Assembly: GCA_964585425.1 (NCBI GenBank)
Contig: CAZPDI010000001.1
Coordinates: 4,804-68,803, forward strand
Direction: 5' to 3'
DNA from: an uncultured Candidatus Saccharibacteria bacterium
Lineage (GTDB): Bacteria > Patescibacteriota > Saccharimonadia > UBA4664 > CAYXHD01
DNA: 64,000 nt
Position numbers and translations under genes: made by a program. The notes under the pieces are model-generated. The model ran no database searches, was not told the DNA's origin, and saw only the letters and a program-made list of their open reading frames with translations. Below are positions 9,978-47,326 of this stretch, piece after piece. Position 1 is the stretch's first letter; each line of letters opens with the position of its first letter.

Positions 9978-10011
9978 GACAAAGCCAACCTACTACCCCG
10001 AAAGAGGTCCC
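9978..10011. repeat. 5' box of cassette 1 (GACAAAGCCAAC..CCGAAAGAGGTCCCG)
   Basis: Repeated at 10404-10437 before cassette 2. Its reverse complement is found after each stop codon. Confidence 0.6.
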
Positions 10012-10269
10012 GTGACCAAAATCACGAACCGCAGCATCGCTCCTGCTGGCAGCATCTCCCAGATCGCTCAGCTCCACCAGGACGGAGAGATCGACCGCGA
10101 CCAGACCACTCAGGTGATCGAAGTGGTTGCGGAACATGCCGCAGAGGCGCCAAACACCTGTCCGCGCTGTCAGCGCGCCAACTGCCCAGTGACGAGGGGC
10201 GGCAACTGCCAGTTGCCAGACATGAAGGTGGTGGATCACCTGGTTCGTCAGCTGCAGACCTCCAACTGA
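10012..10269 (+). CDS. High-GC small zinc-ribbon-like protein
   Basis: GTG start 3 nt after AAAGAGG. CPRC-x4-C-x7-C cysteine arrangement. GC3 nearly 100%. Confidence 0.5.
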   Translation: MTKITNRSIAPAGSISQIAQLHQDGEIDRDQTTQVIEVVAEHAAEAPNTCPRCQRANCPVTRGGNCQLPDMKVVDHLVRQLQTSN

Positions 10270-10270
10270 T

Positions 10271-10320
10271 CTCGAGTCGGTCCTATGGGATCGAGGGGCG
10301 ACGAGGCTTGGCTTTGTCAC
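10271..10320. repeat. 3' box of cassette 1 (hairpin GGTCCtatGGGATC plus GGCTTGGCTTTGTCAC)
   Basis: The 11-bp core TTGGCTTTGTC is the reverse complement of GACAAAGCCAA in the 5' box. The extended region is an imperfect inverse of the 5' box. Confidence 0.55.
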
Positions 10321-10335
10321 CCCCTTATAAAATAG

Positions 10336-10364
10336 TTGACTTTACATGATTATTAAAGTATAGT
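10336..10364 (+). promoter_or_regulatory. Predicted sigma70 promoter for cassette 2
   Basis: TTGACT, 17-nt spacer, TATAGT, in an AT-rich spacer. Confidence 0.5.
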
Positions 10365-10403
10365 TATTGTCATGCTTGCATACGAAGTATGCGCGCACCT
10401 TAC

Positions 10404-10437
10404 GACAAAGCCAACAACTACACCGAAAGGGGTCCCG
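10404..10437. repeat. 5' box of cassette 2 (GACAAAGCCAAC..CCGAAAGGGGTCCCG)
   Basis: Copy of the 9978-10011 box, immediately before the ATG. Confidence 0.6.
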
Positions 10438-11169
10438 ATGGGATCTTCTGGAATTCTGGGGTTTCCCAAGGCTGCACACCGCGCCCCCACCATCAGCGAG
10501 GGGTACCAGGAGTACGTCGAGGAGATGACCGGCCTGGCCGTGTGCATGATCTGCGATAGCGGAACATGCCCCGGCGCCAGTGGACGCGCTTGCCCCTATG
10601 AACTCGACGTCTGCACCGTCTGCTGGCAGCTCGACTGCATTAGCGTCTTCGGTCACGACTGCCCTTCGGAGGAACGCTGCAACAACTGCGGTCACCTCCG
10701 GAACGAATTCGGCCATTACAGCAACTGCTCAATGCCCACAATGAAGCTGTGCGACGAGTGCGGGAGCGCAACCTGTCGCGTCAACCCGCCAAAGGAAATG
10801 CGAGAGGAGTACCCGTCGGACTACAATCCGTACTGGGATGACCACCACAGCATCTTCGATACGCTGGGCTGCCTCTTGGGTAGCCCGATCAGCGAGGAAG
10901 AACGGATCGCGGAAGAGATCGCATCGTGTTGGGCTCCGCGCACCGACCAGATGTCCCGAGATCGAGTACGGCAACAGATGCTGAGAACATGGATTGATCG
11001 TGATCTGGACAAAGCAGCTGAGGAAGCTCAGCAGCGCGCCGACCAGATGTCCCAGTCCATGCATCAGCTCACCGAGCTTGCGGACGACTACGACGACGGA
11101 CTGATCTCCGAGAACGTGGTTCTGATGCTCCTCCGGGCTGATCATCGCGGTGTACGGCTCTCCGGGTGA
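10438..11169 (+). CDS. High-GC cysteine-rich (multi-CxxC) protein with an acidic helical C-terminal half
   Basis: Start chosen at ATG 10438 right after the conserved 5' box. The longer 10372 start lies inside the AT-rich promoter. About 18 Cys in the first ~110 aa, in CxxC pairs. GC3 very high. Confidence 0.5.
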   Translation: MGSSGILGFPKAAHRAPTISEGYQEYVEEMTGLAVCMICDSGTCPGASGRACPYELDVCTVCWQLDCISVFGHDCPSEERCNNCGHLRNEFGHYSNCSMPTMKLCDECGSATCRVNPPKEMREEYPSDYNPYWDDHHSIFDTLGCLLGSPISEEERIAEEIASCWAPRTDQMSRDRVRQQMLRTWIDRDLDKAAEEAQQRADQMSQSMHQLTELADDYDDGLISENVVLMLLRADHRGVRLSG

Positions 11170-11209
11170 CCTTTGAGGGTCGGTGAGCGTCAAGGCTTGG
11201 CTTTGTCAC
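11168..11209. repeat. 3' box of cassette 2 (hairpin GACCtttgagGGTC plus GGCTTGGCTTTGTCAC)
   Basis: Same 16-nt core as 10305-10320, inverse of the 5' box. Confidence 0.55.
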
Positions 11210-11275
11210 TCACCTAAGTGTATATACACGATAAATACATTTAGGTGAGTATTATTAAGATAAACACAACTTCTA

Positions 11276-11304
11276 TTGACAAATAGGGTTTAGTTTGCTA
11301 TACT
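11276..11304 (+). promoter_or_regulatory. Predicted sigma70 promoter for cassette 3
   Basis: TTGACA, 17-nt spacer, TATACT. Confidence 0.5.
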
Positions 11305-11365
11305 TATGCGCAATCTGGTGGAACACCCATCCGATAGAACACAGACCACAACCCAAGGAAAGCCC

Positions 11366-12103
11366 ATGTCTCAGCTCGTCATCGTCCAGGGCCCCAAGCC
11401 CCGCACGTCCGCGGTGTCCGACAAGGATGCCCACAACCTCCGCCTCCAGGCGGACAAGGTGCTGGCCAGGCACCGCGGTGATCTCCCCCAGGAGATCGTC
11501 ACGCAGCTGACCAGCCCGATGCCCGGCATCGTGGGCATGGGACTGCACGACGCGGCCTCCTGGATCAAGCAGCGCACCGCCAACCTCAAGCTGCAGTACG
11601 TGCAGCAGCACCCCGACTGCGAGGCGGCCATGGCCCTCAAGACCCGAGTCGACAACGTCCTCAACGGCGAGTTCGGCGACAAGGTCAAAAAGAGCCTCGA
11701 CATGCGTGGTCAGCGCATCCTCGAGCTGGACCTGTACCAGATCTTGAGCACCGACCAGCTGAAGAGCTTCGCCCACTTCGTCAAGAAGGCCGAGGCAGTC
11801 GAGGGTCGCTTGCAGACCGAGAAGGCACGCAAGGCGGTGCCGGCCCAATCGCTCCAGATGCTGTTCCCGTCCAAGGAGAAGCGCGAGCGCAAGCCGAAGA
11901 AGGTCAAGCCGGCCTACGCCGGTCTCCCCGCACCGTCCACCGGGATCGTCACCGACTGGAAGAGCGACGTCGGCAGCGTCGGTGCCCCGAACCCCCAGGG
12001 TCCGGCGCCGGCACGCGGCGTCACCCTCCGCAAGTCCGACAAGGCTCGCGCCAAGGGAGTGAAGGGTGGTGGCGTCAAGACCCGTCCGGGGCGACGCAAC
12101 TGA
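11366..12103 (+). CDS. High-GC hypothetical protein with a lysine/arginine-rich C-terminal tail
   Basis: AAGGAAAG RBS. GC3 about 95% in this frame. The antisense ORF 11273..12130 is rejected as a GC artefact. C-terminal tail reads KEKRERKPKKVK...KARAKGVKGGGVKTRPGRRN. Confidence 0.5.
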   Translation: MSQLVIVQGPKPRTSAVSDKDAHNLRLQADKVLARHRGDLPQEIVTQLTSPMPGIVGMGLHDAASWIKQRTANLKLQYVQQHPDCEAAMALKTRVDNVLNGEFGDKVKKSLDMRGQRILELDLYQILSTDQLKSFAHFVKKAEAVEGRLQTEKARKAVPAQSLQMLFPSKEKRERKPKKVKPAYAGLPAPSTGIVTDWKSDVGSVGAPNPQGPAPARGVTLRKSDKARAKGVKGGGVKTRPGRRN

Positions 12104-12119
12104 CCAGTTGATCTGCGTT

Positions 12120-12154
12120 CCCCGAGTCATGACATCGTCGTCATGGCTCGGGGG
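12120..12154. terminator. Hairpin between convergent cassette 3 and uvrA
   Basis: CCCCGAGTCATGA ... TCATGGCTCGGGG inverted repeat. Confidence 0.35.
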
Positions 12155-12163
12155 ATCAACACT

Positions 12164-15016
12164 TTATGACTTATTAGAAAATATACGATTCAAGTAAATA
12201 CCGGTATGGCTGCCTTTTACTTTGGCGACTTTTTCGGGGGTACCTTCGGCTATAACGGTACCGCCACCAGCACCACCTTCGGGGCCCATGTCGACGAGCC
12301 AGTCGCTGGATTTGATGATGTCCAGATTATGTTCGATAATCAGCACTGAGTTACCAGTATCGACGAGACGGTTGAGAACCTGCAGGAGACGTCGGACGTC
12401 TTCGAAGTGCAGACCGGTAGTCGGTTCGTCGAGGATGTAGAGAGTTTTACCGGTGCTACGGCGGCTTAGCTCGGAGGCGAGTTTAATACGCTGAGCTTCG
12501 CCACCACTAAAGGTTGTGGCTGATTGACCGAGGTGAATATAGCCCAGGCCGACATCATTAAGGGTTTCGAACTTGCGGCGAATGGCTGGAATGTTTTCGA
12601 AGAACGCCACCGCTTCTTCGACAGTCATGTCCAAGACTTCGCTAATGTTTTTACCTTTATAACGAATTTCTAAGGCTTCACGGTTATAACGTTTGCCCTT
12701 ACATTCGTCGCAGGTTACATAAACGTCTGGCAAGAAGTGCATTTCGATCTTGATAATACCGTCACCACGGCAGACTTCGCAGCGCCCACCCTTGACGTTA
12801 AAACTAAAGCGCCCGGCTTTATACCCACGAATCTTGGCTTCGGGCGTGGATGCAAATAATTCACGAATGTTGCTAAAGACGCCAGTGTAGGTAGCCGGAT
12901 TAGATCGCGGTGTGCGACCGATTGGCGATTGATCAATACTGATGACTTTGTCCAGATTCTTGAGGCCTTCAATGTCATCGTGTTTGCCAGGAACATCGCC
13001 GGCTCGATGATATACTTGCGCGAGTTTCTTGGAAAGAATGTCGTTAATCAGGCTTGACTTACCAGAGCCCGACACACCGGTAACCGTCGTCATCATGCCC
13101 AGAGGCAATGATACATCGATGCCTTTAAGATTATGCTCGCGGGCATTTTTAATAACTAAGTGCTTGCCATTGCCTGGTCGGCGCTTTTTAGGTATCTCAA
13201 TTTTACGAGCACCACTAATGTACTGGCCGGTTAAACTTTCTTTAACTTTGGCAACTTCGTCTGGCGTACCGGCAGCCACCACGTTACCGCCGTGTTTACC
13301 AGCAGCTGGGCCGATATCGATCACGTAATCGGCCGTGCGGATAGTGTCTTCGTCGTGTTCGACGATAATGACGGTATTACCAAGATTGCGTAGACGCTCC
13401 ATGGTGACGATCAACCGATCATTGTCGCGTTGGTGCAGACCAATGCTTGGTTCGTCCAGGATGTAGAGTACGCCCATCAGACTGGAGCCAATTTGCGTAG
13501 CCAAACGAATACGCTGAGCCTCGCCACCAGCTAGGGTGTTAGCACTGCGATCAAGCGTAAGGTATTGCAGGCCAACATCCTGCAAAAAGCTCAGACGCGC
13601 GCAAATCTCTTTCATGATTTGTTTGGCAATCACTTGATCTTTTTCGCTAAGTTCCAAGCCATCGAAGAACTCTACAGCGTCGCCAATACTATAGGTTGTC
13701 ACATCCGCGATGTTTTTACCGTTGACGGTAACGGCCAACACTTCGGGCTTGAGGCGCTTGCCTTCACACACCGGACAAGGACGTTCGGCCATGTACTTTT
13801 CGATTTCCTTGCGCACAAAGTCACTATCGGTGTCATGATATCGTCGCTCCATATTGGGAATGACGCCCTCAAATGTTGACTGATAGGTACGGCCGCCTGG
13901 ACCGCGTACTGGAATCTTCTCGTCCCCTGTTCCGTACAAAATCGTCTTGAGGTCGTTGGGTTTCATGGCGTTTACGGGCGTATCAATACTAAATCTAAAC
14001 TTATTAGCCACACCATTGAGTAGTTTGGTATACCACGTCATCCGACTCGTAGTACGACTCCATGGGCGAATAGCTCCTTCGTTAATGCTGAGGCGACGAT
14101 TTGGGATGACAAGCTCAGGGTCAACTTCTAAGCGTATACCAAGTCCCGTACAGTGCGGGCAGGCACCATGCGGTGAGTTAAAACTAAAGTTACGGGGAGC
14201 AATTTCTGGAAAACTGATCTCGCGGTGCACCGGACAGGCAAAGTGCTCGCTAAAGTCTTTTTCTTCATCAGTATCCACAAAGTGAACCTTAACGATGCCG
14301 TCACCCAGGCCCAACGCTTGTTCCACCGATTCGCTCAATCGCTTAACGACATCTTCGGCAATAACCAATCGATCGACGATGGCCTCTACGGTGTGCTTTT
14401 TTTGTTTATCGAGATCCGGGAATTCATCAATATCATATAGAGTGCCGTTAACCCGCAAGCGCGAATACCCAGCTTTTTTAAGTTCTTGCACGACACCGCG
14501 ATGCTCGCCCTTTTTGTCGCTAACTACTGGCGCAATAATCATGATTTTAGAATCTTGCGGGGATTTCATGATTTGGCTCACAATTTGATCGGCCGATTGT
14601 TTGGTGACTTCGCGACCGCAGACGGGACAATGTGGCACGCCAACGCGCGCGTACAAAAGACGCAAATAATCATAAATTTCCGTAACGGTACCAACCGTAC
14701 TGCGCGGATTACGGCTCGACGATTTTTGATCAATAGAAATCGCTGGGCTCAGACCGTCAATTTGATCGACGTCTGGTTTTTCCATAAGACCCAAAAACTG
14801 CCGGGCGTAGGCACTTAGGCTCTCGACGTAACGGCGCTGACCTTCGGCATAAATGGTATCGAATGCCAAGCTAGACTTGCCTGATCCAGAAAGGCCAGTA
14901 ATAACGACCAGCTTATCGCGTGGAATCTCCACGTTAATATTTTTGAGATTATGCTCCCGGGCACCACGAACTACGATTTTGTCATGCATAACAGACGGTT
15001 CTCCACGGTGACTCAC
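12164..15016 (-). CDS. uvrA: Excinuclease ABC subunit A
   Basis: 950 aa. Two ABC ATPase modules with a Walker A (GLSGSGKSS and GVSGSGKSS) and zinc-finger CxxC pairs. Confidence 0.95.
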
Positions 15017-15131
15017 ATGTCACGTTAGGCTCAAATTATACACAGTTTAGACGAACTTTACAAGTCTCTACAAGCGCTTTCAACAGATATAACTATGTCA
15101 AAAGTGTTCATTATGAATGACAATTTAGTTA

Positions 15132-15938
15132 TTACTTATTTGTAGCAAACTTTTCGTTATAGATGGCGCTGGCTCTATTCCCCATACGGTCTTGGATAGT
15201 TCGTAATTCTGTCCGAACGTCATCATTAACCTGTCGAATTTGTCGACGCACACCCTCGACCACATTCTGTCGTAGGTCCTGAGCAGATATGTCAAAACTG
15301 CTCCTATTACCAGCGTCAGTAATATCCAATGACCCCTGTTGAATTGCGGACAGTTGACTTGCGATAGCATCAATATCTTGTTCATACGAGTCAGCCGCAG
15401 AAGAAACTACAAATCGTAAATTATCTAATGCGCCGAACAATTGCGAATCATTATTACGATACGCTTGAGTATCGGTAGCTCGCAATAACGTGTCTGCACT
15501 GTCGCTGCCAAGTGTTTCGGTGACAAACAATTGTTTACGGACTTCTACGCTACCTGCCCTGGTATCCTTTGAAGGCTGATCTTTGTCAGGCTCCTCCATG
15601 TCTTTGACGGCGGTCTGAATTCGAGTAATTAAGCCTTTAATACTCGTTTCCAGTGAGGTACCATCTGCTAATTCTTGTAGTCGTGGCAATTCTTCGGCAG
15701 CTAACTTATGCAATGTGACGGCTTGCGCGGCGATCACCTCAGTAAACTGATTTACGTCATCTATTACTTGATTAAAATCATTTTGATACTCTCTGAGTAA
15801 GTCTTGGATCTTTTCTTCACTAAACTGGGTTACTTCTTCTGGGGCGGATTCAACAATAAGTTCGCTAGCGTCTACCGCTGGCGTTATTGCTTCGGAATGA
15901 TCTTCGTTTTCTGGTCCATTTGCTCCTTGTTCTGGCAT
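15132..15938 (-). CDS. Acidic coiled-coil hypothetical protein, translationally coupled to uvrB
   Basis: 268 aa, D/E/Q-rich. Start lies 4 nt after the uvrB stop, with an AAGGAG RBS inside the uvrB 3' end. Confidence 0.45.
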   Translation of the reverse strand: MPEQGANGPENEDHSEAITPAVDASELIVESAPEEVTQFSEEKIQDLLREYQNDFNQVIDDVNQFTEVIAAQAVTLHKLAAEELPRLQELADGTSLETSIKGLITRIQTAVKDMEEPDKDQPSKDTRAGSVEVRKQLFVTETLGSDSADTLLRATDTQAYRNNDSQLFGALDNLRFVVSSAADSYEQDIDAIASQLSAIQQGSLDITDAGNRSSFDISAQDLRQNVVEGVRRQIRQVNDDVRTELRTIQDRMGNRASAIYNEKFATNK

Positions 15939-15941
15939 CTT

Positions 15942-17921: not shown

Positions 17922-17944
17922 ACCCTAAGTATAGCACTGTCCAG

Positions 17945-19036: not shown

Positions 19037-19048
19037 ACGTCAAGTATA

Positions 19049-20841: not shown

Positions 20842-20848
20842 CGCAACC

Positions 20849-22833: not shown

Positions 22834-22857
22834 GGTGTTCCTTATTTGTTATGCTTA

Positions 22858-30117: not shown

Positions 30118-30135
30118 TTGCTTATTCTTTTACAA

Positions 30136-30181: not shown

Positions 30182-30556
30182 ATGATCACATGTGAAGTGC
30201 AGGACCAGGCTGGCGGGAAGTCCACGAGCGTCATCACCCTCGGTGATGCCCTGGCTGCCGTTGCCTACCTGATCGGCATCAGCGGGAACTCCCAGCTTGA
30301 GTACCACGAGCTGATCGAGGGCCAGTCGTTGACCATCATCTCGGAAGGACATGCCCTCGTTGGGCAGATCGAGATGCCGGACTTCGAGGAGGAGGAGCCC
30401 TACTTCGGCCTGATGTACACCTTCTCCAGCAACGGCGATCGCGACTTCGAGCTGTTCAGCCTGCTGGTTCTGCCGGCAATGTTGCTGAACCTGCAGCAAT
30501 GCGAACCGCAGGTGATCATCGAGCTCGAGCGGATGCGCCAACCGGTGACCGCCTGA
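30182..30556 (+). CDS. High-GC hypothetical acidic protein (124 aa)
   Basis: AAGGAG RBS 7 nt upstream. GC3 high. No family recognised. Confidence 0.5.
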   Translation: MITCEVQDQAGGKSTSVITLGDALAAVAYLIGISGNSQLEYHELIEGQSLTIISEGHALVGQIEMPDFEEEEPYFGLMYTFSSNGDRDFELFSLLVLPAMLLNLQQCEPQVIIELERMRQPVTA

Positions 30557-30575
30557 GGTTGCGGTGAGTAGGCCA

Positions 30576-30593
30576 GGTTCCCTCCGGGGAATC
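30576..30593 (+). terminator. Hairpin GGTTCCC-TCCG-GGGAATC
   Basis: Same hairpin type as the GGTCCC..GGGATC family. No immediate T-run. Confidence 0.35.
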
Positions 30594-30606
30594 TGTGCCG
30601 ACCACC

Positions 30607-30621
30607 GGCTGATTGGCTAGA
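30607..30621. repeat. Right inverted repeat GGCTGATTGGCTAGA
   Basis: Reverse complement of the left repeat at 30136-30150. Confidence 0.55.
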
Positions 30622-30630
30622 TAAAAAGAT

Positions 30631-32401: not shown

Positions 32402-32638
32402 AATTGTTTTCCTCCTATTCCCATTGTAGCAAACATGTCAAATAATGTAAGTGGCTAACATATTGCTTTGTGGTTATTTTGAGCGGCGAACAACCAGCCA
32501 TGTATGACTACCTACCCCCGCGGGTAACCATCTACGGCTGGCAGCTCGCACCTCAAACACTCACCTGTTTCTAGAATAACAAATTTAGTGACGCGGGGCT
32601 AGGAGTGGTATACAATACATGCATAACGAGGATGGAAG

Positions 32639-33031: not shown

Positions 33032-33034
33032 CTG

Positions 33035-34966: not shown

Positions 34967-34968
34967 GC

Positions 34969-36009: not shown

Positions 36010-36034
36010 ACCCCCATTATACTCCTATTAACGG

Positions 36035-36457: not shown

Positions 36458-36483
36458 TGGGCAACCTCCTTGTTACCTCTGTA

Positions 36484-37580: not shown

Positions 37581-37606
37581 CCGTGGACGACAAAAACTTT
37601 CAGAAA

Positions 37607-39303: not shown

Positions 39304-39315
39304 ATGCTTATTGTA

Positions 39316-39942
39316 CTACCAGTCGAAGTATTTCTCAATTTCGGCATGCAGTACGGCTAACGGATCTTGATCATCCGTATGCTTAGCATCTTCCGGGGCA
39401 GCAGCATCGGCTTTATTCTTTGGCTTAGCCTTGGGTCGCTTCTTTTTATAGGCCAAGGTGCTTTTGAGGTTGTTCATAAAATGGAGGTAAGGCTCAAACA
39501 TTTCTTCTTTATACAGGGCCGAGTATTTATTTCGATTCGGTATGATGAGCGTTTCAAGCTTGTCTTGTTCTATAAAGTACTTCACCAAGCACTGGAAGTC
39601 GCCGTCACCGCTTATCACAATTGCTTTATCGTATTTGTCATAATCTATCATGGCCTGCAGCACCAGCTCGGCGTCACAGTTACCCTTGGTGGTGCCGTCT
39701 TTATGCTCGATAGTCGGTTTATAAATACATACAAAACCGGCCGCCTCCAAGGTGTTATAGAGGTCTTCGTGCCCCTCAATAAAACCCACAAAAATATAGG
39801 CCTTCACCACGTTGTAATTTTCGGCTAGATAGGCTCGGAAACGCTTATGATCAAGCGGCCAGCCCATTTCGCGAATGGAGAGGTTGAGGTTTTGACTATC
39901 GATAAATGCATAATTGCCGAGCTGGTCGGTCTTGGGTTCCAT
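39316..39942 (-). CDS. NYN-domain (LabA-like PIN-fold) protein
   Basis: FIDSQN...GNCDAEL...SGDGDF motifs of the NYN/LabA nuclease fold. Confidence 0.65.
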   Translation of the reverse strand: MEPKTDQLGNYAFIDSQNLNLSIREMGWPLDHKRFRAYLAENYNVVKAYIFVGFIEGHEDLYNTLEAAGFVCIYKPTIEHKDGTTKGNCDAELVLQAMIDYDKYDKAIVISGDGDFQCLVKYFIEQDKLETLIIPNRNKYSALYKEEMFEPYLHFMNNLKSTLAYKKKRPKAKPKNKADAAAPEDAKHTDDQDPLAVLHAEIEKYFDW

Positions 39943-39977
39943 GCAAAGATTGTATCACATACAGCCCCTCATTGCTA

Positions 39978-40006
39978 TTGCATTATGTCGCAAAATATGA
40001 TTAAAT
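39978..40006 (+). promoter_or_regulatory. Predicted promoter of module 1
   Basis: TTGCAT, 17-nt spacer, TTAAAT. The TGATTAAAT block recurs in the 40688 promoter. Confidence 0.35.
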
Positions 40007-40040
40007 AGTATGGTTCTGCTACCTATCCCTAAGGATTCCA

Positions 40041-40415
40041 ATGAATGCACCTGCCCGTCCCATGCCCGACATCACCGATGTGGAGCTGACCAAGAAGATC
40101 ATCGATGAACGTGTGAAGCACCACAACCTGCGCCATGAAGATGGTGAAGCGATCTGGATGGTAGTCACGGCCATCGGTCATGCCATCAAGATCGGTGATC
40201 CTCAGTACAGCCCGATGATCGACCGCAACGTCACGGGGCTGCGCAACGAGGCGAGGCCAGGCGAAGTTCCGGTCATCTTGCTGTCCGACCTGAACCGCAT
40301 CTTCTGTGACGACACGTTGATACGCGAGCTGCAGCGGGTGTTCCCGAGCATCGTCAATGATGCGGCGCGCGTTGCCTGCTGGAAGTTCCGCAACTGCATG
40401 TACGGATGCGACTGA
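40041..40415 (+). CDS. High-GC hypothetical protein (124 aa), module 1 gene A
   Basis: TAAGGAT RBS. GC3 high. No family recognised. Confidence 0.45.
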   Translation: MNAPARPMPDITDVELTKKIIDERVKHHNLRHEDGEAIWMVVTAIGHAIKIGDPQYSPMIDRNVTGLRNEARPGEVPVILLSDLNRIFCDDTLIRELQRVFPSIVNDAARVACWKFRNCMYGCD

Positions 40416-40417
40416 TC

Positions 40418-40627
40418 ATGCGCCTTCGGATCCCCTGGCGCAAGCAAACCGTGCCGCCGCCACCCGCGACTGTCGCGATGAAGGCTGCGCCCCTGGTGCC
40501 GCCACCTCATCGCCGGATGACGGCCGAAGAACGCGCTGCGTGCTGCCAAGATCAGAGGAAGATCAAGCTGCGTGCTGCCAAGCGTTGTCGGCGCAAGGCC
40601 CGAAAGCGCCGACTGCGCAACAAGTAA
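40418..40627 (+). CDS. Pro-rich/basic small protein, paralog 1 (alternative start 40406)
   Basis: GACTGATCATG junction with the upstream gene is conserved in paralog 42234..42467. Differences between the paralogs are often synonymous in this frame. Confidence 0.5.
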   Translation: MRLRIPWRKQTVPPPPATVAMKAAPLVPPPHRRMTAEERAACCQDQRKIKLRAAKRCRRKARKRRLRNK

Positions 40628-40645
40628 CCCCCGTGAGGCGGATCG

Positions 40646-40680
40646 CCGAAAGGTCCCTCTTGCGGGGGATCTTTCGTTAT
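40646..40680 (+). terminator. Family hairpin GAAAGGTCCC-tcttgcg-GGGGATCTTTC plus GTTAT
   Basis: 9-bp stem including G-U pairs, with a U-rich tail. Confidence 0.5.
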
Positions 40681-40687
40681 GGTGATA

Positions 40688-40716
40688 TTGATTTATACCT
40701 GTAAATGTGATTAAAT
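40688..40716 (+). promoter_or_regulatory. Predicted promoter of unit 2
   Basis: TTGATT, 17-nt spacer, TTAAAT. AAAGGAGAG RBS follows. Confidence 0.35.
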
Positions 40717-40750
40717 TTCCCTATTCCGTTTCGAGTCCAAAGGAGAGACC

Positions 40751-40984
40751 ATGACGGACGCACATGCCACGGCCGTCTCCACGGTCTATTTTTGGCTCGA
40801 GTACGAGTTGGGTATCGATAATCCTGATCACGTTGAACTGACCATGATTATCGAGAATGGCTGGCTGCGCTATCGGTGCCCGGCCCACGACATCACCCCG
40901 CTTGAAATCGCCCGCCTCGAAGCTGCCTGCCGGCACCACGCCCATTCTCTTGAAGTGCACCTGAACCTGGAGGTTCAATCATGA
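40751..40984 (+). CDS. High-GC small hypothetical protein (77 aa)
   Basis: AAGGAGAG RBS. ATGA overlap with the next gene. Confidence 0.4.
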   Translation: MTDAHATAVSTVYFWLEYELGIDNPDHVELTMIIENGWLRYRCPAHDITPLEIARLEAACRHHAHSLEVHLNLEVQS

Positions 40985-41733
40985 TTGTCCACAAGCACGA
41001 CATCGATACCGCAGCTCGTCTGGCCGCCAAAGAGCGGTTCATGAACGAGTCATGGCTGGATGATCGCAAGGTGCGATCATGGTTCGCTTGGCTCGGTATC
41101 CGTCCTGACGGTCATCAAGCATTGCGCATCTTGCGCGCTGTGCATGCCACGGCTGCCACCGTGCGTGAGTACAAGATCCACCATCGCCACACGCGCTTCG
41201 GTCGAACGATGCGCCTGCAGCGCCGGCTCCCACCGTGGCCCGCCAAGTACGCGGATACCCCGGTCATCAATGCCGCGCAGATGCTGCTGGTGACTCAGCG
41301 CACGGACTACATCCACCTCACGGAGCTGACGCGACCAATTACGGGTACCAGTTATCGGCACGGCGACAATCGACGCGTCGATATGGAAACGTGCAAGATG
41401 TTCCTGGAGAACGTGCAGAGCAAGTTCATGCGCGAAGCCGTTTGGTCAGATGAGTTGGTATGTATCGAGAGCTTTGCGCGGCTCGGCCTGACGCCCGATG
41501 AGCTGCTGGTGGCCGAGATGGCTCTGATCCGTCTGATGAGTAGGTATCGGCACGAAAAGGGGCTTACCTGGTATCTGATGCCGACCTATGGCAGCCGGAG
41601 CCGCCGCTTGCACACCCTCACCATGGGTGATTTCTTGAACATCACCCGATTTCTCCAACCCAACTATGGCGACACCGACATGGAGTTTCTCATGACGCTG
41701 GCCGATCGTCTGCGTTCGCGACTTGCGACCTGA
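40981..41733 (+). CDS. High-GC hypothetical protein (250 aa)
   Basis: GC3 high. Translationally coupled to the preceding ORF. No family recognised. Confidence 0.45.
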   Translation: MIVHKHDIDTAARLAAKERFMNESWLDDRKVRSWFAWLGIRPDGHQALRILRAVHATAATVREYKIHHRHTRFGRTMRLQRRLPPWPAKYADTPVINAAQMLLVTQRTDYIHLTELTRPITGTSYRHGDNRRVDMETCKMFLENVQSKFMREAVWSDELVCIESFARLGLTPDELLVAEMALIRLMSRYRHEKGLTWYLMPTYGSRSRRLHTLTMGDFLNITRFLQPNYGDTDMEFLMTLADRLRSRLAT

Positions 41734-41764
41734 TCTCGACACATACCCTCGCGGGGGCTTTTCT

Positions 41765-41798
41765 ACGGAAAGGTCCCTGCGGGGGATCTTTCGTTTAT
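41765..41798 (+). terminator. Family hairpin ACGGAAAGGTCCC-TGCGG-GGGATCTTTCG plus TTTAT
   Basis: Near-identical copy at 42492-42525. Confidence 0.55.
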
Positions 41799-41801
41799 AG
41801 C

Positions 41802-41830
41802 TTGCAATATCAATACTTTAAATGTATAAT
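41802..41830 (+). promoter_or_regulatory. Predicted sigma70 promoter of module 2
   Basis: TTGCAA, 17-nt spacer, TATAAT. AAGGAG RBS at 41849. Confidence 0.5.
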
Positions 41831-41859
41831 TTGTAAATCCGTACGACCAAGGAGTACCC

Positions 41860-42231
41860 TTGACCGAAGCCAATACCCTACCCAAGGCCGATGCCAGCGT
41901 CAAGCTGTCCGACGACATCATCGCAAGCTGCTACGAGGGCTGCGATCCCCGTGAGTCCGATCGAGCTCGCGGCTGCATCGCCGCCCTCAAGGACCTGCTA
42001 CGGCTCGCCGAGAAGACGCCGAACGACGCGCGCTACCAGGAGATCCGGGAGTTCGACGCCGACACCCTGACCGTTGGCCAGTTCATCACCCTGATGTACC
42101 TGCCGGCGATGTCGCCGAATCAGCCCCGCCAGCTGATGCGCAACGTGCGTAGCAACTGGGGGCGACTCAACCAGCGAGTTCTCATCGAGCTGCGAGACAA
42201 GCTGGATGAGCGCTACGAGCCCCAGGACTGA
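41860..42231 (+). CDS. High-GC hypothetical protein (123 aa), module 2 gene A
   Basis: TTG start 6 nt after AAGGAG. GC3 high. Not similar to 40041..40415. Confidence 0.45.
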   Translation: MTEANTLPKADASVKLSDDIIASCYEGCDPRESDRARGCIAALKDLLRLAEKTPNDARYQEIREFDADTLTVGQFITLMYLPAMSPNQPRQLMRNVRSNWGRLNQRVLIELRDKLDERYEPQD

Positions 42232-42233
42232 TC

Positions 42234-42467
42234 ATGGGCATCTGGAACTCTCGGCGCAAGAAGACGACACCACCGCCACCTCCTCCTGCACCTCCTCCGC
42301 CGCCCGCGGCTGTCGCGATGAAGACTGCACCACTGGCGCCGCCACCGCGTCGCCGAATGACGGCCGAAGAACGCGCCGCTCTCAAGCTGCCCAAAGTGAA
42401 GGCCCGGCAGCGCCTGGCCAAGAACCGACGCGCCAAGGTCAGGAAGCGCAAGCACAAGAAGTCCTGA
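42234..42467 (+). CDS. Pro-rich/basic small protein, paralog 2
   Basis: PPPPPPAPPPPPAAVAMKTAPLAPPPRRRMTAEERAA plus a K/R-rich tail. About 85% nucleotide identity to the 40418 paralog in the central part. Confidence 0.5.
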   Translation: MGIWNSRRKKTTPPPPPPAPPPPPAAVAMKTAPLAPPPRRRMTAEERAALKLPKVKARQRLAKNRRAKVRKRKHKKS

Positions 42468-42491
42468 TCGCGCCCCTGTGGGGACTTTTCT

Positions 42492-42525
42492 ACGGAAAGG
42501 TCCCTGCGGGGGATCTTTCGTTTTT
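42492..42525 (+). terminator. Family hairpin plus T5
   Basis: ACGGAAAGGTCCCTGCGGGGGATCTTTCGTTTTT. Confidence 0.55.
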
Positions 42526-42603
42526 AAATGAGAAAGACCCAGGATTTCTCCTAGGTCTAGGGGCCAGGGATTCGACTACCCTGCACCCCCATCCACAACC
42601 TGT

Positions 42604-43035
42604 TCACGCCTGCATATCAGGCGGCAAGGTGAAGGCGTCAGGGTACGAGATGACCAGATCATTATCGTTCAACGGATAGATCGCGCCCCAGTCCGTAAGC
42701 ACGAACCGTTCGCAGAACGTCTGATCCACAGCACGAGCATACGCTGGTATATCACGCAGATCGTCTTTCGTCAGCTCTTGCCCCCAGTAAAAGGTCCCTT
42801 TGTCATGAGAGTTGTGAGTAACGACCTTGTCATCAGGACATATGAATGTGTAGATCTCTGTGAAATCAAAGCCGATAGCCCCTTGCTGGTGCTTAACCCC
42901 GAGAGGGTCACGGCCTGCCGTGACGATGGCATCAACTCGAGACAACACGCCAGTCGGGTATATGTAGCGAGCCACCAACAACTTGGTGGCGACCACGTCG
43001 ATGTGCTTGGTCTGGCTTTCACCCTCGGTATCCAT
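42604..43035 (-). CDS. Hypothetical protein
   Basis: 143-aa ORF. No family recognised. Confidence 0.3.
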   Translation of the reverse strand: MDTEGESQTKHIDVVATKLLVARYIYPTGVLSRVDAIVTAGRDPLGVKHQQGAIGFDFTEIYTFICPDDKVVTHNSHDKGTFYWGQELTKDDLRDIPAYARAVDQTFCERFVLTDWGAIYPLNDNDLVISYPDAFTLPPDMQA

Positions 43036-43119
43036 GATGCGCCCCTTCGTTGGTTGGACTTGAAAAGGATAGTTGCATAATACTCCCGGCAGTTCACTGC
43101 CGCAAGAGTAAGCGGTTTA

Positions 43120-43545
43120 CTAGAGCCCCTCTATAAATGTCTCGATAAAGCTATTCAGCTTGCTGCCAACTCGAGTAATGATCGAGTCTCGCTCCAAAAT
43201 CTTGGGCTTAGCTATTAATGTAGCGGCAATCTCATTGCGGCGTGGCTTGCGGCCAGTGAATAAGTAATCGTTAATCAGTTTTTGCAATTCATCGGTCATT
43301 AGACCTTCTTCAACACACATGGCCTCAAAAGCTTTAGCGCGCTCGACATTCCAGAACGAATCAAACTCACCAGCTACATCTTCAGGATTCTCGATCTTGG
43401 GTAGCGATCGGGCAATAAATTTCTCAATCAGCTCGCGCTTGCTACGCAGCACGGCATTGCCCATAAGCGTGTTATTAAGATTATCGATTATCTGAGCTTT
43501 TTTTGATCTTCCGACATAACCCCTCGCTTTGTGTCTATTGTACAC
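43120..43545 (-). CDS. Stand-alone fragment resembling the C-terminal helical domain of a type I restriction enzyme R subunit (possible remnant)
   Basis: 141 aa. The ..FW..E.AKAFE..C.EE.L....L.K.I..YLFT.RKP.R.EI...L..KPK.LER..I..R.. pattern is recalled from HsdR C-termini. No helicase or nuclease part and no hsdM/hsdS nearby. Confidence 0.3.
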   Translation of the reverse strand: MYNRHKARGYVGRSKKAQIIDNLNNTLMGNAVLRSKRELIEKFIARSLPKIENPEDVAGEFDSFWNVERAKAFEAMCVEEGLMTDELQKLINDYLFTGRKPRRNEIAATLIAKPKILERDSIITRVGSKLNSFIETFIEGL

Positions 43546-43680
43546 GTTTTCTTCTAATGTTTATATCTGTCGCCATCTTGACATATCGCTTGTGCTAGCA
43601 TATTATACGTATATCCAATGGTTGTACCATTCAACTGTCGGGGAATTACATCCGAGAGCGACCTTCTTTAAAGAGGGTCG

Positions 43681-44283
43681 TTATTTTTTTGCGCGGTACA
43701 CCAGCGGCTTGCCCCAAATATCCTCACTTATTCTCAAAATATCAATGTAGCCATCGCCCCCTGTAAGAAGTTCACTAGATACATTATTTTTAGATGATAC
43801 AATATATACTTTTTTATCACGATTGCGGATAAAACTCACAAGTTCGAGGAAGTCTGAGTCGCCACTAAACAGGACGGCCACATCGTACGAATTGACTAGG
43901 GCTACAGCATCAATGGTAAGCTCAACATCCATATTACCCTTTTCAATAATTAATCCACTACCAGTTTTTATCTGCTTGAGTGGTTTTTTGCGGACTATAT
44001 ATCCCATTCTTTTTTGCAGTGCAGTGTAGAAAGAATGCTTATTCGAAACACTATACTCTCGAGTACCAACCTCGGGATAGGCATCATAATAGTAAATCTC
44101 TAATACACTTGCATGGTATTTTACTTTCAGATAGTTTTTGAGTTTTTTCATATCTAAAAGAACCCCTTTGGTCTTTTGGGCCTGCCAGAGATTAGAGGCA
44201 TCAATAAAAACGTGAACTCTTTTATTCATATCATTAATTATACGGTATTTGTTCGGTATTAGTCGAGGCCGTAATGTCCCCAC
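43681..44283 (-). CDS. NYN-domain (LabA-like) protein
   Basis: VFIDASN...GNMDVEL...SGDSDF motifs. Paralogous in fold to 39316..39942. Confidence 0.65.
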   Translation of the reverse strand: MGTLRPRLIPNKYRIINDMNKRVHVFIDASNLWQAQKTKGVLLDMKKLKNYLKVKYHASVLEIYYYDAYPEVGTREYSVSNKHSFYTALQKRMGYIVRKKPLKQIKTGSGLIIEKGNMDVELTIDAVALVNSYDVAVLFSGDSDFLELVSFIRNRDKKVYIVSSKNNVSSELLTGGDGYIDILRISEDIWGKPLVYRAKK

Positions 44284-44393
44284 CGTGTCCGTTCTTCAAA
44301 GTGGGGTTTTTGAGCTCGAGAAAGTCGATGATGGGTTGGATACCTACCTTGGCCGAAGTAGTAACTTCTAGGCCTTTATCATTTATGTAGTGC

Positions 44394-44422
44394 TTGCTTT
44401 TTTATAAGTTTTATGCTAGTAT
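44394..44422 (+). promoter_or_regulatory. Predicted sigma70 promoter
   Basis: TTGCTT, 17-nt spacer, TAGTAT. AAAGGAAA RBS before ATG 44458. Confidence 0.4.
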
Positions 44423-44457
44423 ATACGCATCTTGGCCGTCTAGCAAAAGGAAACATC

Positions 44458-44868
44458 ATGCCAAGCGCACAGACCATCCTCCCTCTGACCGCCGAACAGG
44501 TGGCCATGCCCGTGACCGCTGCCATCCTCACCACGGAGGACATCATCGGCGACCACGGGAGGTACCCGAAGGACATCGCTCACAGCTTGTCCACCATCTG
44601 CGAGTTCCTGCAGGAGGTCAAGCGGGAGGTCAAGCAGAGTCCAAGGGCCTACCTCGGCTGGTTGGAGTTGGCGGATGAGAACGGGGTGCGCTTCAGCGAG
44701 CGCGATTACCCCAGCATCACCGCAGGGTTCCTCCTGGCCGTGATGGAATCCAGCGCCGCCTGGGGCACCGTGATGAAGCACGGTCCGGAGGACTACTGCT
44801 TCGAGCAGCTGAACATGCTGAGGACGGCGGTCTACGCCCTCCTCTTCAAGCGGTCGCTGGCTGGCTGA
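44458..44868 (+). CDS. High-GC hypothetical protein (136 aa)
   Basis: Start at the first ATG after the RBS. GC3 high. Confidence 0.5.
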   Translation: MPSAQTILPLTAEQVAMPVTAAILTTEDIIGDHGRYPKDIAHSLSTICEFLQEVKREVKQSPRAYLGWLELADENGVRFSERDYPSITAGFLLAVMESSAAWGTVMKHGPEDYCFEQLNMLRTAVYALLFKRSLAG

Positions 44869-44894
44869 GGTTCTTCCTCCGCCAGCACCACGCC

Positions 44895-44934
44895 CCACTC
44901 GGGGTCTTCTACGGAAGACTCCGAGTGGGTTTTT
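44895..44934 (+). terminator. Hairpin CCACTCGGGGTCTTC-TACG-GAAGACTCCGAGTGG plus T5 and CGTTTAT
   Basis: 15-bp near-perfect stem. The CTACGGAAG and TTTCGTTTAT tail is shared with the hairpin family. Confidence 0.55.
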
Positions 44935-44944
44935 CGTTTATGCC

Positions 44945-46777
44945 TTACTTTTTGTTATTAGCGGCGCGCTTGCGCATGGAGGGGTTGAGTTCGCGTTTGC
45001 GGAGGCGGAGACTCTTGGGTGTGACTTCCAATAGCTCGTCGTTTTCCAGGAAGTCGATGCATTGTTCGAGGCTAAAAATAGTGTGTGGCGTGAGGCGGAC
45101 AGTGCCGTCACTGGATGAGCTACGCATGTTAGTGAGGTGTTTTTCTTTACAGACATTCATTTCCATATCGTCACCGCGGCTGTTGAGACCGACGATCTGA
45201 CCAGCGTAGACTTTGACGCCAGGACCAACGTACATGGTGCCGCGTTCTTCGGCCATTTGCAGGGCGTACGGCGTGGTCGTGCCAGTTTCGAAGGCAATCA
45301 GGGCACCGTTACGAAGTTGCTGCAGGGCGGGACCTTGCGGTTCGTAACCAACCATCAAGCTGTTCATGATAATTGTGCCCTTAGTGGCAGTTACTAAGAC
45401 GTTTCGAAGACCAAGTAAGGCTCGGGTTGGGAGTTCGTACACCAGTTTAGTGACGCCAGCGGCGTTGGCGAACTGCTCTTTAACGGTGGCGCGGCGTTGG
45501 CCAAGCTCCATTTGGACGGCACCGACGTATTCGGCCGGAACTTCGATGATGAGCTCTTCGATTGGCTCCATGGTCTTGCCGTTTTCTTGCTTGGTAACAA
45601 CTTGCGGGCGGCCAACTTCTAGCTCGTATCCTTCGCGGCGCATAGTTTCGATGAGCACCGACAGGTGTAGTTCGCCACGACCACTAACTAAATTGCCAAT
45701 TCCGCTGGGCTCGACACGCAGGCCAATATTGGTCTCCAGTTCTTTTTCGAGCCGTTCACCGATTTGACGGCTGGTAGTAAACTCACCTTCTAGACCCTTG
45801 AATGGACTAGTGTTTGGTCCTAGGTAAATCTGCAATGTTGGAGCTTCGATTTCCAGCACTGGTAGAGCTTCGGGCTGTTCGGCATCAGCAATGGTTTCAC
45901 CAATCTTGGCGTTAGCAATACCAGTAAGCTGGATAATCTCACCAGCAATGGCGCTGTCCACCGGATACTTGCTCACGCCTTGGCTGGCAAACACGCCATC
46001 AACTTTGGCTTTAGATTGCTTACCGTCTTTATCGATAAGGGTAACAGCATCACCAGTTTTAACACTACCGCGGGTAATGCGACCAACAGCGTATTTACCC
46101 TTAAATGAATCATACGAGAGAGCAGTGACAAGCATCTGGAAAGGCTTATCGAGCTCTACGTCTGGCGCAGGAATATCGTTCTTAATGGCAGTAAAGATTA
46201 CCTCCAGGTTAGCATCTTCTTCGGGATTAGCTGGCACCCCGGCCCAAGCTTTACCGGCGCGACCAATGGCGTAATAAATTGGGTAAAAGAGTTGATCTTC
46301 GTGCACGGCCAGCTCGAGGAAGAGGTCAGCTAATTCTTCTTCGACTTCGGCAATACGACTACCTGGCTTATCAATTTTGTTAATAACAACGATAGGCTTG
46401 AGACCCATGGCAAGTGCCTTAGAAAGCACAAACTTAGTTTGTGGCATCGGACCTTCTTGGGCGTCGACTATCAGTAAACAGCCGTCTGCCATATTAAGGG
46501 TTCGCTCTACCTCACCACCAAAGTCGGCGTGTCCAGGCGTATCGATAATATTAATGCGGATATCATCGTGCTGCACGGCCGTAACTTTAGCGGTAATAGT
46601 AATACCGCGCTCGCGCTCTTGGTCGCCACTATCCATGATCAGTTCTTGACCCATCTCGGCCTGGTTATCACGAAAGATTTTTGACTGCTTTAACAGGCCA
46701 TCTACCAGGGTAGTTTTACCGTGATCGACGTGAGCAATAATAGCAATATTACGAATGTTTTTTGGATCTTGTTGCAT
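44945..46777 (-). CDS. typA: Translational GTPase TypA/BipA
   Basis: [23 protein letters not shown]-motifs. 610-aa BipA architecture. Confidence 0.95.
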
Positions 46778-46883
46778 TAAAAAACGCCTCCCCGGCGTGC
46801 TAGGTATTATTAGAGTAATTATAGCATAAATATCCTAAATATCATACAATTAGACAGTTCGCCCATCTACTAAAGGGGAAGTA

Positions 46884-47258
46884 GTGCACCTCACTAATCC
46901 AAGTCGCCGCCGAACTGATTCTGACGTGGTCATGCTGGTTCGTACGCCAGGTGGCCACCTGGCTGTGCTGGTCTTTACTGCTACAGCCCGTGGACAACGC
47001 CTTCGTCTGGATAGTCAAACATGGAATGGTGTGACGTTTGACGATATGGATGACGCCATCAAAGCGCTCCAGGAAACGGCCGACGCTCACTTGATTACCG
47101 AGAACAACCGTGTGACGGACACGTTGCTTCATGCCAATCCATTGGATTCGCACTTCTTCTTGATGGAGCCCTGGGATCACAAACGCTTCATCGAAGCGAT
47201 CAAACGGGATGGTCTGTTCGATTGTCAGCGTCCGGTGTTCACACCCGTCACCCGCTGA
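46884..47258 (+). CDS. Hypothetical protein (124 aa, moderately GC-elevated)
   Basis: GTG start after AAAGGGGA. Followed by a hairpin plus CGTCGTTTATAAGG, resembling the cassette terminator tail. Confidence 0.35.
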   Translation: MHLTNPSRRRTDSDVVMLVRTPGGHLAVLVFTATARGQRLRLDSQTWNGVTFDDMDDAIKALQETADAHLITENNRVTDTLLHANPLDSHFFLMEPWDHKRFIEAIKRDGLFDCQRPVFTPVTR

Positions 47259-47326
47259 TTTCAGTAGCACCCACCTACGACAAGCCCACCGCTGGTTGTA
47301 GGTGGGCTTCGTCGTTTATAAGGTTA

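Follow-up and report, generated by a model that had tools for sequence, protein, structure and literature searches.

The window analysed here is a stretch of 64,000 nucleotides (nt) from an uncultured Candidatus Saccharibacteria bacterium (assembly GCA_964585425.1, contig CAZPDI010000001.1, positions 4,804 to 68,803). Its GC content is about 48%, and the large open reading frames (ORFs) of its minus strand were identified by Pfam matches as UvrA, UvrB, UvrC, BipA, a major facilitator superfamily transporter, a sulfatase, enzymes of the pentose-phosphate pathway and glycolysis, an extracytoplasmic function-type sigma factor and similar proteins. Nearly all native genes are on this strand, with a GC content at third codon positions (GC3) of about 0.35-0.6, around 0.5. 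The window is a chromosome segment of a Saccharibacterium with a housekeeping backbone (uvrABC, bipA, sugar-phosphate metabolism). In a BipA-based scan of one genome for each species, 80 loci were recovered, nearly all from Candidatus Saccharibacteria, Saccharimonadales or Patescibacteria, with a top match of 93% protein identity. A search for an exact UvrB match gave no entry. Between the housekeeping genes lie at least 12 small expression units, each consisting of an AT-rich, near-consensus sigma-70 promoter, a leader with a Shine-Dalgarno sequence, one or two ORFs and a strong GC hairpin. The ORFs of these units, called cassettes below, have a GC3 of 0.60-0.87 as compared to about 0.5 for native genes. 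The cassettes and the hairpins that close them are the subject of this analysis; an initial annotation had assigned the hairpins to a single family and had seen in it a sign of a common route of mobilisation or domestication.

Two groups of units on the plus strand form arrays. Array A (9907-12103, GC3 0.71-0.87) contains the ORFs A1 (10012-10269), A2 (10438-11169) and A3 (11366-12103), with promoters at 9907-9935, 10336-10364 and 11276-11304; those of A1, A3 and A2 are the three best sigma-70 matches of the first 20 kb (11/12, 11/12 and 10/12). Array B (39972-42467) contains three units of two ORFs each, lettered a and b: B1 (40041-40415 and 40418-40627), B2 (40751-40984 and 40981-41733) and B3 (41860-42231 and 42234-42467). 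Its promoters are at 39972-40001 and 41802-41830, with another, read by eye, at about 40688-40716. Also on the plus strand are the ORFs of unit C (30182-30556, 124 amino acids (aa), GC3 0.75), unit D (44458-44868, 136 aa, GC3 0.84) and the less extreme unit E (46884-47258, 124 aa), for which the GC3 of about 0.60 is an antisense-frame figure. Three single-gene high-GC units on the minus strand (54689-57693) encode an orotidine monophosphate (OMP) decarboxylase, a phosphoribosyltransferase and an amidohydrolase (pyrF-, pyrE- and pyrC-like); each has its own promoter and hairpin, and all three are outside the range covered by the initial annotation. A moderately GC-rich ORF, Bx (42604-43035, minus strand, GC3 0.64), has a weaker hairpin of 10 pairs at 42535-42558 on the same strand.

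A strong terminal hairpin was found in all 12 high-GC units defined in the window, as had been claimed for the cassettes, and every sequence quoted in the initial annotation is present at its position. Six more genomes of the same clade were recovered (L001; L081 with L169; L084; L085; L165; L166 with L170; L168), all of which have high-GC units on the strand opposite to bipA in the same intergenic slots, often with other ORFs. Over the seven genomes, each of 36 cassette ends carries a hairpin 0-33 nt past the stop codon, on the sense strand, with a folding free energy (dG) of -19 to -45 kcal/mol. The unit hairpins reach -24 to -46 kcal/mol, with z values of -2.4 to -6 against shuffled sequence. 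When the whole 64 kb was scanned for strong hairpins outside coding sequence (stems no shorter than 11 bp, dG no higher than -18 kcal/mol), nine of the 11 sites followed high-GC ORFs, the other two being a native terminator (7886-7922) and an AT-rich palindrome (11208-11250).

The sequence family behind the most conspicuous of these hairpins was captured in a covariance model, R1, built from 11 aligned terminators of the window and close relatives, with which the window was scanned with filters off. The consensus hairpin has 14 pairs, 8 of which show compensatory changes, and sense-strand scores are far above antisense scores. R1 recovers only four sites in the window, all on the plus strand: the terminators of B1 (40628-40684; 51.8 bits, E = 1e-12), B2 (41746-41802; 63.1 bits), B3 (42473-42529; 62.9 bits) and D (44893-44945; 39.0 bits, E = 4.5e-9). 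The complete terminators originally placed at 40646, 41765 and 42492 are the R1 members of array B, and the motif frame recorded at 44895 is the member of unit D. The dominant fold is a GC-rich stem of 16-18 bp, which B2, B3 and D cap with C(UACG)G; it has a dG of -32 to -34 kcal/mol and is followed by a U-rich tail of the form nUCUUUCGUUUAU, with AUCUUUCGUUUAU or UUUUUCGUUUAU. In B1, the long hairpin CCCCCGTGAGG...CCTCTTGCGGGGG precedes the tail ATCTTTCGTTATGG, and a short hairpin GGTCCC..GGGGATC at 40652-40671 is an alternative to it. The B2 terminator, with an 18-bp stem, C(UACG)G tetraloop and tail ATCTTTCGTTTAT, has a dG of -34.2 kcal/mol, and none of 200 shuffled sequences folded as well. 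It has a run of 39 identical nt in common with the B3 terminator, and where their 5' arms differ, at four positions, pairing is kept through G-U pairs. The D terminator (16-bp stem, UACG loop, tail TTTTTCGTTTAT) abuts the stop codon of bipA on the opposite strand. Just 3' of the stem, the U-tract reads UUUUU or UUUUCUC in D and the members from L084 and L165 (L165_c), and AUCUUUCGUUUAU in the B-type members. The long hairpin and its U-rich tail are best treated as a working terminator, as predicted from these features.

The GGTCCC-loop-GGGATC core from which the family had originally been defined is partly upheld. The pattern GGTCCC-N(3-12)-GGGAYC occurs four times (10431, 40652, 41772 and 42499) against 0.04 expected, but in the R1 element it represents the weaker of two alternative folds, made of the 3' arm and the tail and incompatible with the long stem (about -16 versus about -34 kcal/mol for the 18-bp stem). 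The supposedly shared tail TTTCGTTTAT did not hold up: 9 matches with at most one mismatch were counted versus 5.2 expected, which is not significant, and only those at 41789 and 44932 are exact.

Nor do the hairpins form one family. By sequence there are at least five (R1, A-type, E-type, pyrE/C-type and pyrF-type), with A3 and C as singletons, and R1 finds none of the A1, A2, A3, C and pyr terminators. The positions 10279, 11168 and 30576, thought to hold diverged versions, gave no R1 match, like 12117 and the pyr hairpins, and the hairpin at 47270-47309, listed as a member, scores only 6.7 bits (E = 8). The A-type family, with the core AGGCTTGGCTTTGTCAC, comprises the plus-strand terminators of A1 (10277-10323; a double hairpin, the second with GGCTTGGCTTTGTCAC, -28.4 kcal/mol) and A2 (11168-11214), which have a 40-nt direct repeat in common. 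The A2 terminator is directly followed by an AT-rich inverted repeat of 19 bp (ACTCACCTAAGTGTATATA / TAAATACATTTAGGTGAGT, 11208-11250). This repeat precedes the promoter of A3, is kept in L168 and may be an operator-like site. The A3 terminator (12107-12160, plus strand; a hairpin of 17-21 bp, -35 kcal/mol, z -5.9) fits between the stop codons of A3 (12103) and uvrA (12164) and is kept in L168 and L170; that of unit C (30562-30608, plus strand) has the core GGTTCCC-TCCG-GGGAATC, at -38.6 kcal/mol and z -4.4. Five genomes keep an E-type hairpin in the slot upstream of bipA, the E terminator of the window (47270-47318, plus strand, tail CTTCGTCGTTTATAAGG) having homologous hairpins in the same slot of L001, L081, L085 and L166. 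On the minus strand, the terminators of the pyrC-like (54622-54676, tail GCTCGCAATTTATGAA, identical in L085, L165 and L166) and pyrE-like (55856-55901) units make up the pyrE/C-type, with the tail GCTCGCAATTTATGA, and the terminator of the pyrF-like unit (56674-56739, -46.3 kcal/mol) has homologues in the same three genomes.

Two further positions of the motif, 9998 and 10423, had been described as 5' half-sites or ribosome-binding sites. They are located in a 40-nt leader block that A1 and A2 have in common, CGACAAAGCCAAC...CCGAAAGRGGTCCCG. In A1, the block (9977-10014, plus strand; CGACAAAGCCAAC..CCGAAAGAGGTCCCGTG) includes the Shine-Dalgarno sequence and a GTG start, is a direct repeat of the A2 leader and is kept in L168 and L170; in A2 (10403-10447, plus strand), the AUG is in the loop of a GGGGUCCC-GAU-GGGAUCUU hairpin. 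Since GAAAGRGG stands 5-6 nt before the GTG or ATG start, it is read as a ribosome-binding site. The A2 leader and the B1 terminator have a 20-nt composite pattern in common, of which no occurrence is expected by chance. The half-sites are thus real and non-random, as ribosome-binding leaders of the paralogues A1 and A2, but they are not terminators. Both leaders contain an 11-nt perfect complement to their own terminator (GACAAAGCCAA/TTGGCTTTGTC; 9978-9988 with 10308-10318 and 10404-10414 with 11197-11207), a result obtained with none of 300 shuffled sequences. The two 11-nt arms are unchanged in L170, where native DNA is only about 75-80% identical, and the pair also brackets an 85-nt segment with the A2 promoter (I7). 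Significant 5'/3' complementarity is absent from 18 of 21 units, and only A1 and A2 possess an 11-nt repeat of this kind; it could reflect 5'-3' pairing within the mRNA or be a relic of recombination.

The distribution of R1 is narrow. The family was found in five, perhaps six, of the recovered clade genomes, and two matches outside the training set, L165 19142-19206 (41.6 bits) and L165 12755-12812 (22 bits), both come after high-GC ORFs; a marginal match is at L166 5876-5931. In the seven clade genomes (about 140 kb), 9 of 31 high-GC3 ORFs, but none of 136 native ORFs, have an R1 match at a distance of up to 120 nt on their downstream side (Fisher p = 9e-8), so that the enrichment beside GC3-rich ORFs for which the initial annotation suggested a test is present. 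Because R1 closes nine of the high-GC3 ORFs and no native one, the hairpin is not equally frequent after ordinary genes, and this comparison supports R1 as a cassette-specific element rather than the generic terminator of the organism. No R1 match at E < 0.4 was obtained in about 2.3 Mb from some 155 more distant Saccharibacteria. High-GC3 outlier ORFs as such are also present in 16 of 138 more distant Saccharibacteria loci. At L162 13037-17171, four of them stand in a row beside bipA, with the same style of promoter, hairpin and TTTTATG; L054 8071-8592 and L141 433-906 are opposite-strand high-GC3 ORFs with AT-rich promoters and strong hairpins, of which the hairpin GGCGGCGAG...CTCGCCGCC is homologous between the two.

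The cassette ORFs show the GC3 periodicity of coding sequence, and those tested are under purifying selection, with ratios of nonsynonymous to synonymous divergence (dN/dS) of 0.29 for B2 and 0.11 for E (against L081). Pfam gave no match for 10 cassette ORFs and PHROGs none for the cassette ORFs, and AlphaFold2 models were poor (pLDDT 51 for A3 and 44 for B2b). Among 5.8 billion proteins, B2b was found to match itself and one relative of 86% identity, and a search of 1.84 billion cluster representatives with B3a gave a single true relative (P0161); a second candidate, P0160, is a repetitive eukaryotic protein and was discarded as spurious. The pyrF-like gene is 63-66% identical to counterparts in syntenic clade genomes only, and about 40-50% to those elsewhere. 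A phage origin of the cassettes was rejected, as no match was obtained by megablast of two window segments against phage records, by tblastn searches of 50,697 phage records with B2b and A3, with PHROGs, or by a scan of IMG/VR with A3. The high GC3 persists in all clade genomes even though synonymous sites of the core are near saturation, which is a compositional puzzle. As to details of individual ORFs, A2 includes a 20-nt direct repeat, GCGCRCCGACCAGATGTCCC (10938-10957 and 11034-11053), that gives a repeated ...RxDQMS... peptide motif, and B1b (40418-40627) and B3b (42234-42467) both combine an N-terminal half rich in proline with a C-terminal tail that is very basic (RRRMTAEERA...KRKHKK); L081 has another, diverged copy (2-310), the third in all.

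The content of the slots changes rapidly between relatives. The divergence is bimodal, with cassettes being either near-identical or far more diverged than the core. A3 is 99.5% identical to its counterpart in L168, with a synonymous divergence (dS) of 0.023, whereas dS is 0.53 for uvrA, 0.66 for pepP and 0.28 for uvrC in the flanks; likewise, dS between B2 and L081 is 0.08-0.26 as compared to 0.95 for bipA. At the other extreme, A3 is only 38% identical to its L170 counterpart at 97% identity for UvrA, and PyrE and PyrC are 32% and 45% identical to those of L166 beside an ABC-3 permease of 91%. By these figures, some cassettes have been swapped far more recently than the core genome diverged. 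Sharp breakpoints replace segments within the A1 and A3 ORFs (window 10108-10266 and 11931-12107). A2 is missing from L168 and L169, where a hybrid terminator, located exactly at the 40-nt repeats, begins like that of A1 and ends like that of A2. Recombination between the two repeats should yield just such a product and explains the A2 indel. Many ORFs are diverged paralogues or positional homologues (B1b and B3b, z = 18; B3a, L001_c2 and L085_c2a; B2b and L085_c1; L081_E2 and L085_cE), and promoters and terminators are often alike because whole units descend from a common ancestor. A history in common to the copies is supported, with B1b and B3b as paralogues and the 39-nt run of the B2 and B3 terminators as examples. 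Differential loss accounts for the occurrence of different ORFs between the same flanks at the E slot, which is empty in L084 (GCATAAA|GAATAGG). The target-site duplications that a mobile element might have left were looked for by comparing this empty slot with the filled ones of L001 and L085, and none was found. Family scans detected no transposase, RAYT, integrase or other recombinase among about 70 scanned ORFs of the window, and no recombinase was found in the fetched flanks. The turnover fits homologous recombination among a diverse pool of alleles. For the pyr units, the enzymes are 32-70% identical between clade genomes versus 81-91% for their neighbours, with promoter and tail modules kept, and L085 has an OMP decarboxylase of 34% identity in the same pyr socket.

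The combined evidence is probably best explained by lineage-specific, predicted intrinsic terminators, of which R1 is one family, that close moron-like accessory units spread by duplication and homologous recombination. The hairpins would act as Rho-independent terminators of small, independently transcribed accessory units between housekeeping genes, R1 serving B1, B2, B3 and D and the other units using terminators of the A-, E-, pyrE/C- or pyrF-type or singletons. Tandem duplication and gene conversion would make whole cassettes or their 3' parts paralogous, which is why the terminator copies would be alike, and homologous recombination would swap, delete and rebuild cassettes, sometimes breaking inside the conserved end modules. 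The exchange may proceed through natural transformation; two reports describe Saccharibacteria as naturally competent (PMC10633639, PMC10187176). The anatomy, position and orientation of the units, the limits of the families, the association with high-GC ORFs, the turnover between relatives and the footprints of recombination are directly supported. Termination of transcription by the hairpins is a prediction.

Compared to known Rho-independent terminators, the elements are similar in having a GC-rich stem-loop on the sense strand directly past the stop codon, often a stable UACG (UNCG-type) tetraloop, and compensatory changes in the stem; the stretch 3' of it is U-rich in some units and reduced to UUAU or UUUAU in others. 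They differ in that stems of 16-20 bp are unusually long, the U-tract is interrupted (AUCUUUCGUUUAU), the tail can pair with the 3' arm, and R1 is confined to accessory high-GC units of one genus-level clade. The units resemble the morons of lambdoid prophages, which also have their own promoter, one or two ORFs of deviant GC content and their own terminator, are placed between conserved genes and vary among close relatives. Unlike morons, they occur in a housekeeping chromosome (uvrA, uvrB, uvrC, bipA, pentose-phosphate genes) instead of a prophage, form tandem arrays and have no phage homologues. A further parallel is with hypervariable accessory loci such as those for capsule, O-antigen and defence islands, where conserved flanks enclose mosaic alleles that are near-identical or extremely divergent relative to the core, and restriction-modification genes share the same hot spot here (Vsr/Dcm in L081; an HsdR fragment at 43120-43545 in the window). 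The units described here differ from such loci in being tiny single-gene transcription units with a GC content far above the genome and with standardised promoter and terminator modules.

Several observations weigh against this explanation. Conserved promoter and terminator modules flank ORFs of only 32-45% identity next to neighbours of 81-91%, and homologous recombination alone suffices for such a pattern only if the diverse allele pool carries the same end modules. The clade sample of only about 140 kb means that native terminators are poorly represented. In the B-type tail (AUCUUUCG...), the U-tract is interrupted, and the A1, A3 and pyr hairpins are followed by UUAU or UUUAU only. Finally, the 3' arm can also pair with the tail to form a second hairpin in 12 of 12 R1 members, which a plain terminator does not need.

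A broader reading, which we consider unlikely, is that the clade, and perhaps others such as the lineage of L162, keeps a plug-in system in which high-GC ORFan or metabolic genes are swapped as units in conserved sockets of promoter-leader and hairpin-tail, the double-pairing hairpin being part of the machinery of exchange or control. The GC3 of 0.60-0.93, which persists despite a near-saturated core, would then imply that a hidden pool of high-GC genes exists, that a GC-biased process acts on these units alone, or that GC-rich coding is selected, for example because of a role connected with high-GC actinobacterial hosts.

As lineage-specific, predicted terminators, the hairpins themselves add little and the cassettes are the part of interest. 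They are small, strongly promoted, GC-rich and fast-turnover genes in an ultrasmall epibiont, most of them without relatives in billions of public proteins, and such loci are natural candidates for genes with which Patescibacteria interact with their hosts or carry out defence or counter-defence. In addition, the new genetic tools for Saccharibacteria could draw on the conserved promoter and terminator modules as ready expression parts. No description of such cassettes was found in the literature searched, and as far as that search goes, ORFan cassettes that are standardised, rich in GC and rapidly exchanged have not been described in a Patescibacterium.

The possibility that the hairpins are a donor signature, offered as an alternative in the initial annotation in the form of a donor-specific untranslated-region signature, is improbable. 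In that case, each ORF would have arrived together with its own terminator from a high-GC donor, either an actinobacterium or an actinobacterial phage. The hairpins equal the ORFs in GC richness and stand at the GC boundary, and stems that are long and have poor U-tracts are frequent in Actinobacteria. The hosts on which cultivated Saccharibacteria live are Actinobacteria, as one report states (PMC10633639). When IMG/VR was searched with the hairpin pattern, a single hit, CCCCCGAAAGGGGGATCTTTCGTT, was obtained in a viral contig of 68% GC (L164). This hit is at or below the number expected by chance for the 18-base pattern, a rough estimate made with an assumed size of about 6e10 bases for the viral collection, and the contig has no protein in common with the cassettes; it was therefore rejected as a trace of a donor. 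For the ORFs no donor is detectable: B2b and B3a are essentially without relatives outside the clade in the searches of 5.8 and 1.84 billion proteins, and the phage records gave no match. Moreover, one terminator closes unrelated ORFs, the families are kept by slot across genomes with near-saturated synonymous sites, and the AT-rich tails run on without a break into AT-rich promoters of the native type, all of which leaves the donor alternative weak.

It is also improbable that a dedicated cassette-capture system uses the hairpin as its recombination site, similar to integron attC sites or to IS200/IS605 elements, with units inserting beside existing hairpins. Such a system would suit the head-to-tail arrays, the breaks of gained and lost units at or beside the hairpin or tail, the insertion without target-site duplication, as is usual for IS200/IS605 and integrons, and a design of three segments with two pairings that is more elaborate than a terminator needs. 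Like arrays of integron cassettes, the units are short and end in imperfect palindromes of which the shape and a short tail recur while the sequence varies (TTTATG or TTTATA at 11 of 36 ends by regular expression, more by eye), and their content differs among relatives. However, there is no intI, attI, Pc or R/L core site here, each unit has its own promoter, and the units occupy many slots on both strands. The tails GTTATGG, GTTTATA and GTTTATG do not agree with the integron core sites (RYYYAAC ... GTTRRRY), since position 5 is T and not a purine. Furthermore, no integrase, Y1 transposase or other recombinase was found in the window or the fetched flanks, recombination between the 40-nt direct repeats fully accounts for the A2 indel, and other breakpoints are inside ORFs, as is typical of homologous recombination tracts.

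Improbable, too, is that the element is a regulatory RNA, in which mutually exclusive hairpins would form an attenuator or a binding site for a protein or RNase that controls read-through into the next unit or mRNA stability, with the copy at the A2 start controlling translation. The alternative hairpin is available in all 12 R1 members, and the tail changes along with the start of the 3' arm (GAAAGGUCCC/GGGGAUCUUUC, GAGAGUCCC/GGGGCUUUCUC, GGAUCGCCC/GGGCGAUUC); a GGUCCC/GGGAUC hairpin encloses the A2 AUG, and genes with an NYN (RNase-like) domain flank array B. Yet the second hairpin clearly beats tail-shuffled controls in only about half of the R1 members and is no better than these controls in D, L084 and L165_c. 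The evidence for it rests on folds of single sequences because RNAalifold on a MAFFT alignment of the 3' arm and tail recovered only 4 inner pairs. The long hairpin, which is the first to form as transcription proceeds, has the advantage in stability by 15-20 kcal/mol, and the same element closes single units at array ends, where there is nothing downstream to regulate.

The original proposal of a non-autonomous element spread by transposition and carrying a terminator and ribosome-binding site, akin to repetitive extragenic palindromic (REP) sequences with their mosaic elements (BIMEs) or to miniature inverted-repeat transposable elements (MITEs), with which the hairpins have in common that they are short, repeated intergenic palindromes found at several loci, and for which the 11-nt perfect inverted repeat GACAAAGCCAA/TTGGCTTTGTC around A1 and A2, kept in L170 and bracketing the 85-nt A2 promoter segment, might speak, is largely refuted and has become extremely improbable: the window has only four R1 copies, none beside native genes, the repeated pieces are tied to particular, paralogous ORFs, terminal complementarity is limited to A1 and A2 (18 of 21 units lack it), and neither target-site duplications at empty versus filled sites nor a RAYT or transposase gene among the window ORFs was found. 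A reading as clustered regularly interspaced short palindromic repeats (CRISPR) was also considered and rejected.

Some other features of the region deserve mention. Array B and bipA are separated by a hot spot of variable content (42604-44283), which in the window holds a lone C-terminal fragment of HsdR (43120-43545), an NYN-domain gene and Bx, and in L081 (2079-4576) a set of Vsr, an unknown gene and a Dcm methylase, plus metK and DUF3800. Between two minus-strand genes, a small, conserved plus-strand unit at 43576-43692 has a TTGACA-17-TATTAT promoter, about 80 nt with an ORF of 17 codons (MVVPFNCRGITSESDLL) and a terminator made of a classical hairpin and T7; it is 82% identical to L081 5724-5838, where the gene neighbourhood is different. 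The Rfam scan, which returned one tRNA and nothing else for the window, had no match at 43540-43720. The Xaa-Pro aminopeptidase ORF at 8830-9879 (minus strand) is 349 aa long versus 391-419 aa in all homologues, and its M24 domain match ends at profile position 145 of 208; from these lengths it looks C-terminally truncated or frameshifted. In the relatives, about 100 nt of conserved non-coding sequence that looks structured, GAATAGGTTCCGGCCAGAGCGGCG...GCGCTGGCCGGC, without an Rfam match at the gathering threshold, borders the cassette slot upstream of bipA (L001 1700-1800, L084 2040-2150, L085 8470-8560), and an S-adenosylmethionine (SAM) riboswitch is located upstream of metK, beside the slot downstream of bipA (L001 6634-6746, L084 4930-5029). 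Directly upstream of the bipA ATG and overlapping its Shine-Dalgarno sequence, a hairpin ACGCCGGGGAGGCGT followed by T6 (46784-46798, minus strand) is kept in L001, L081 and L084 and diverged in L085, and may be a leader or attenuator of bipA.

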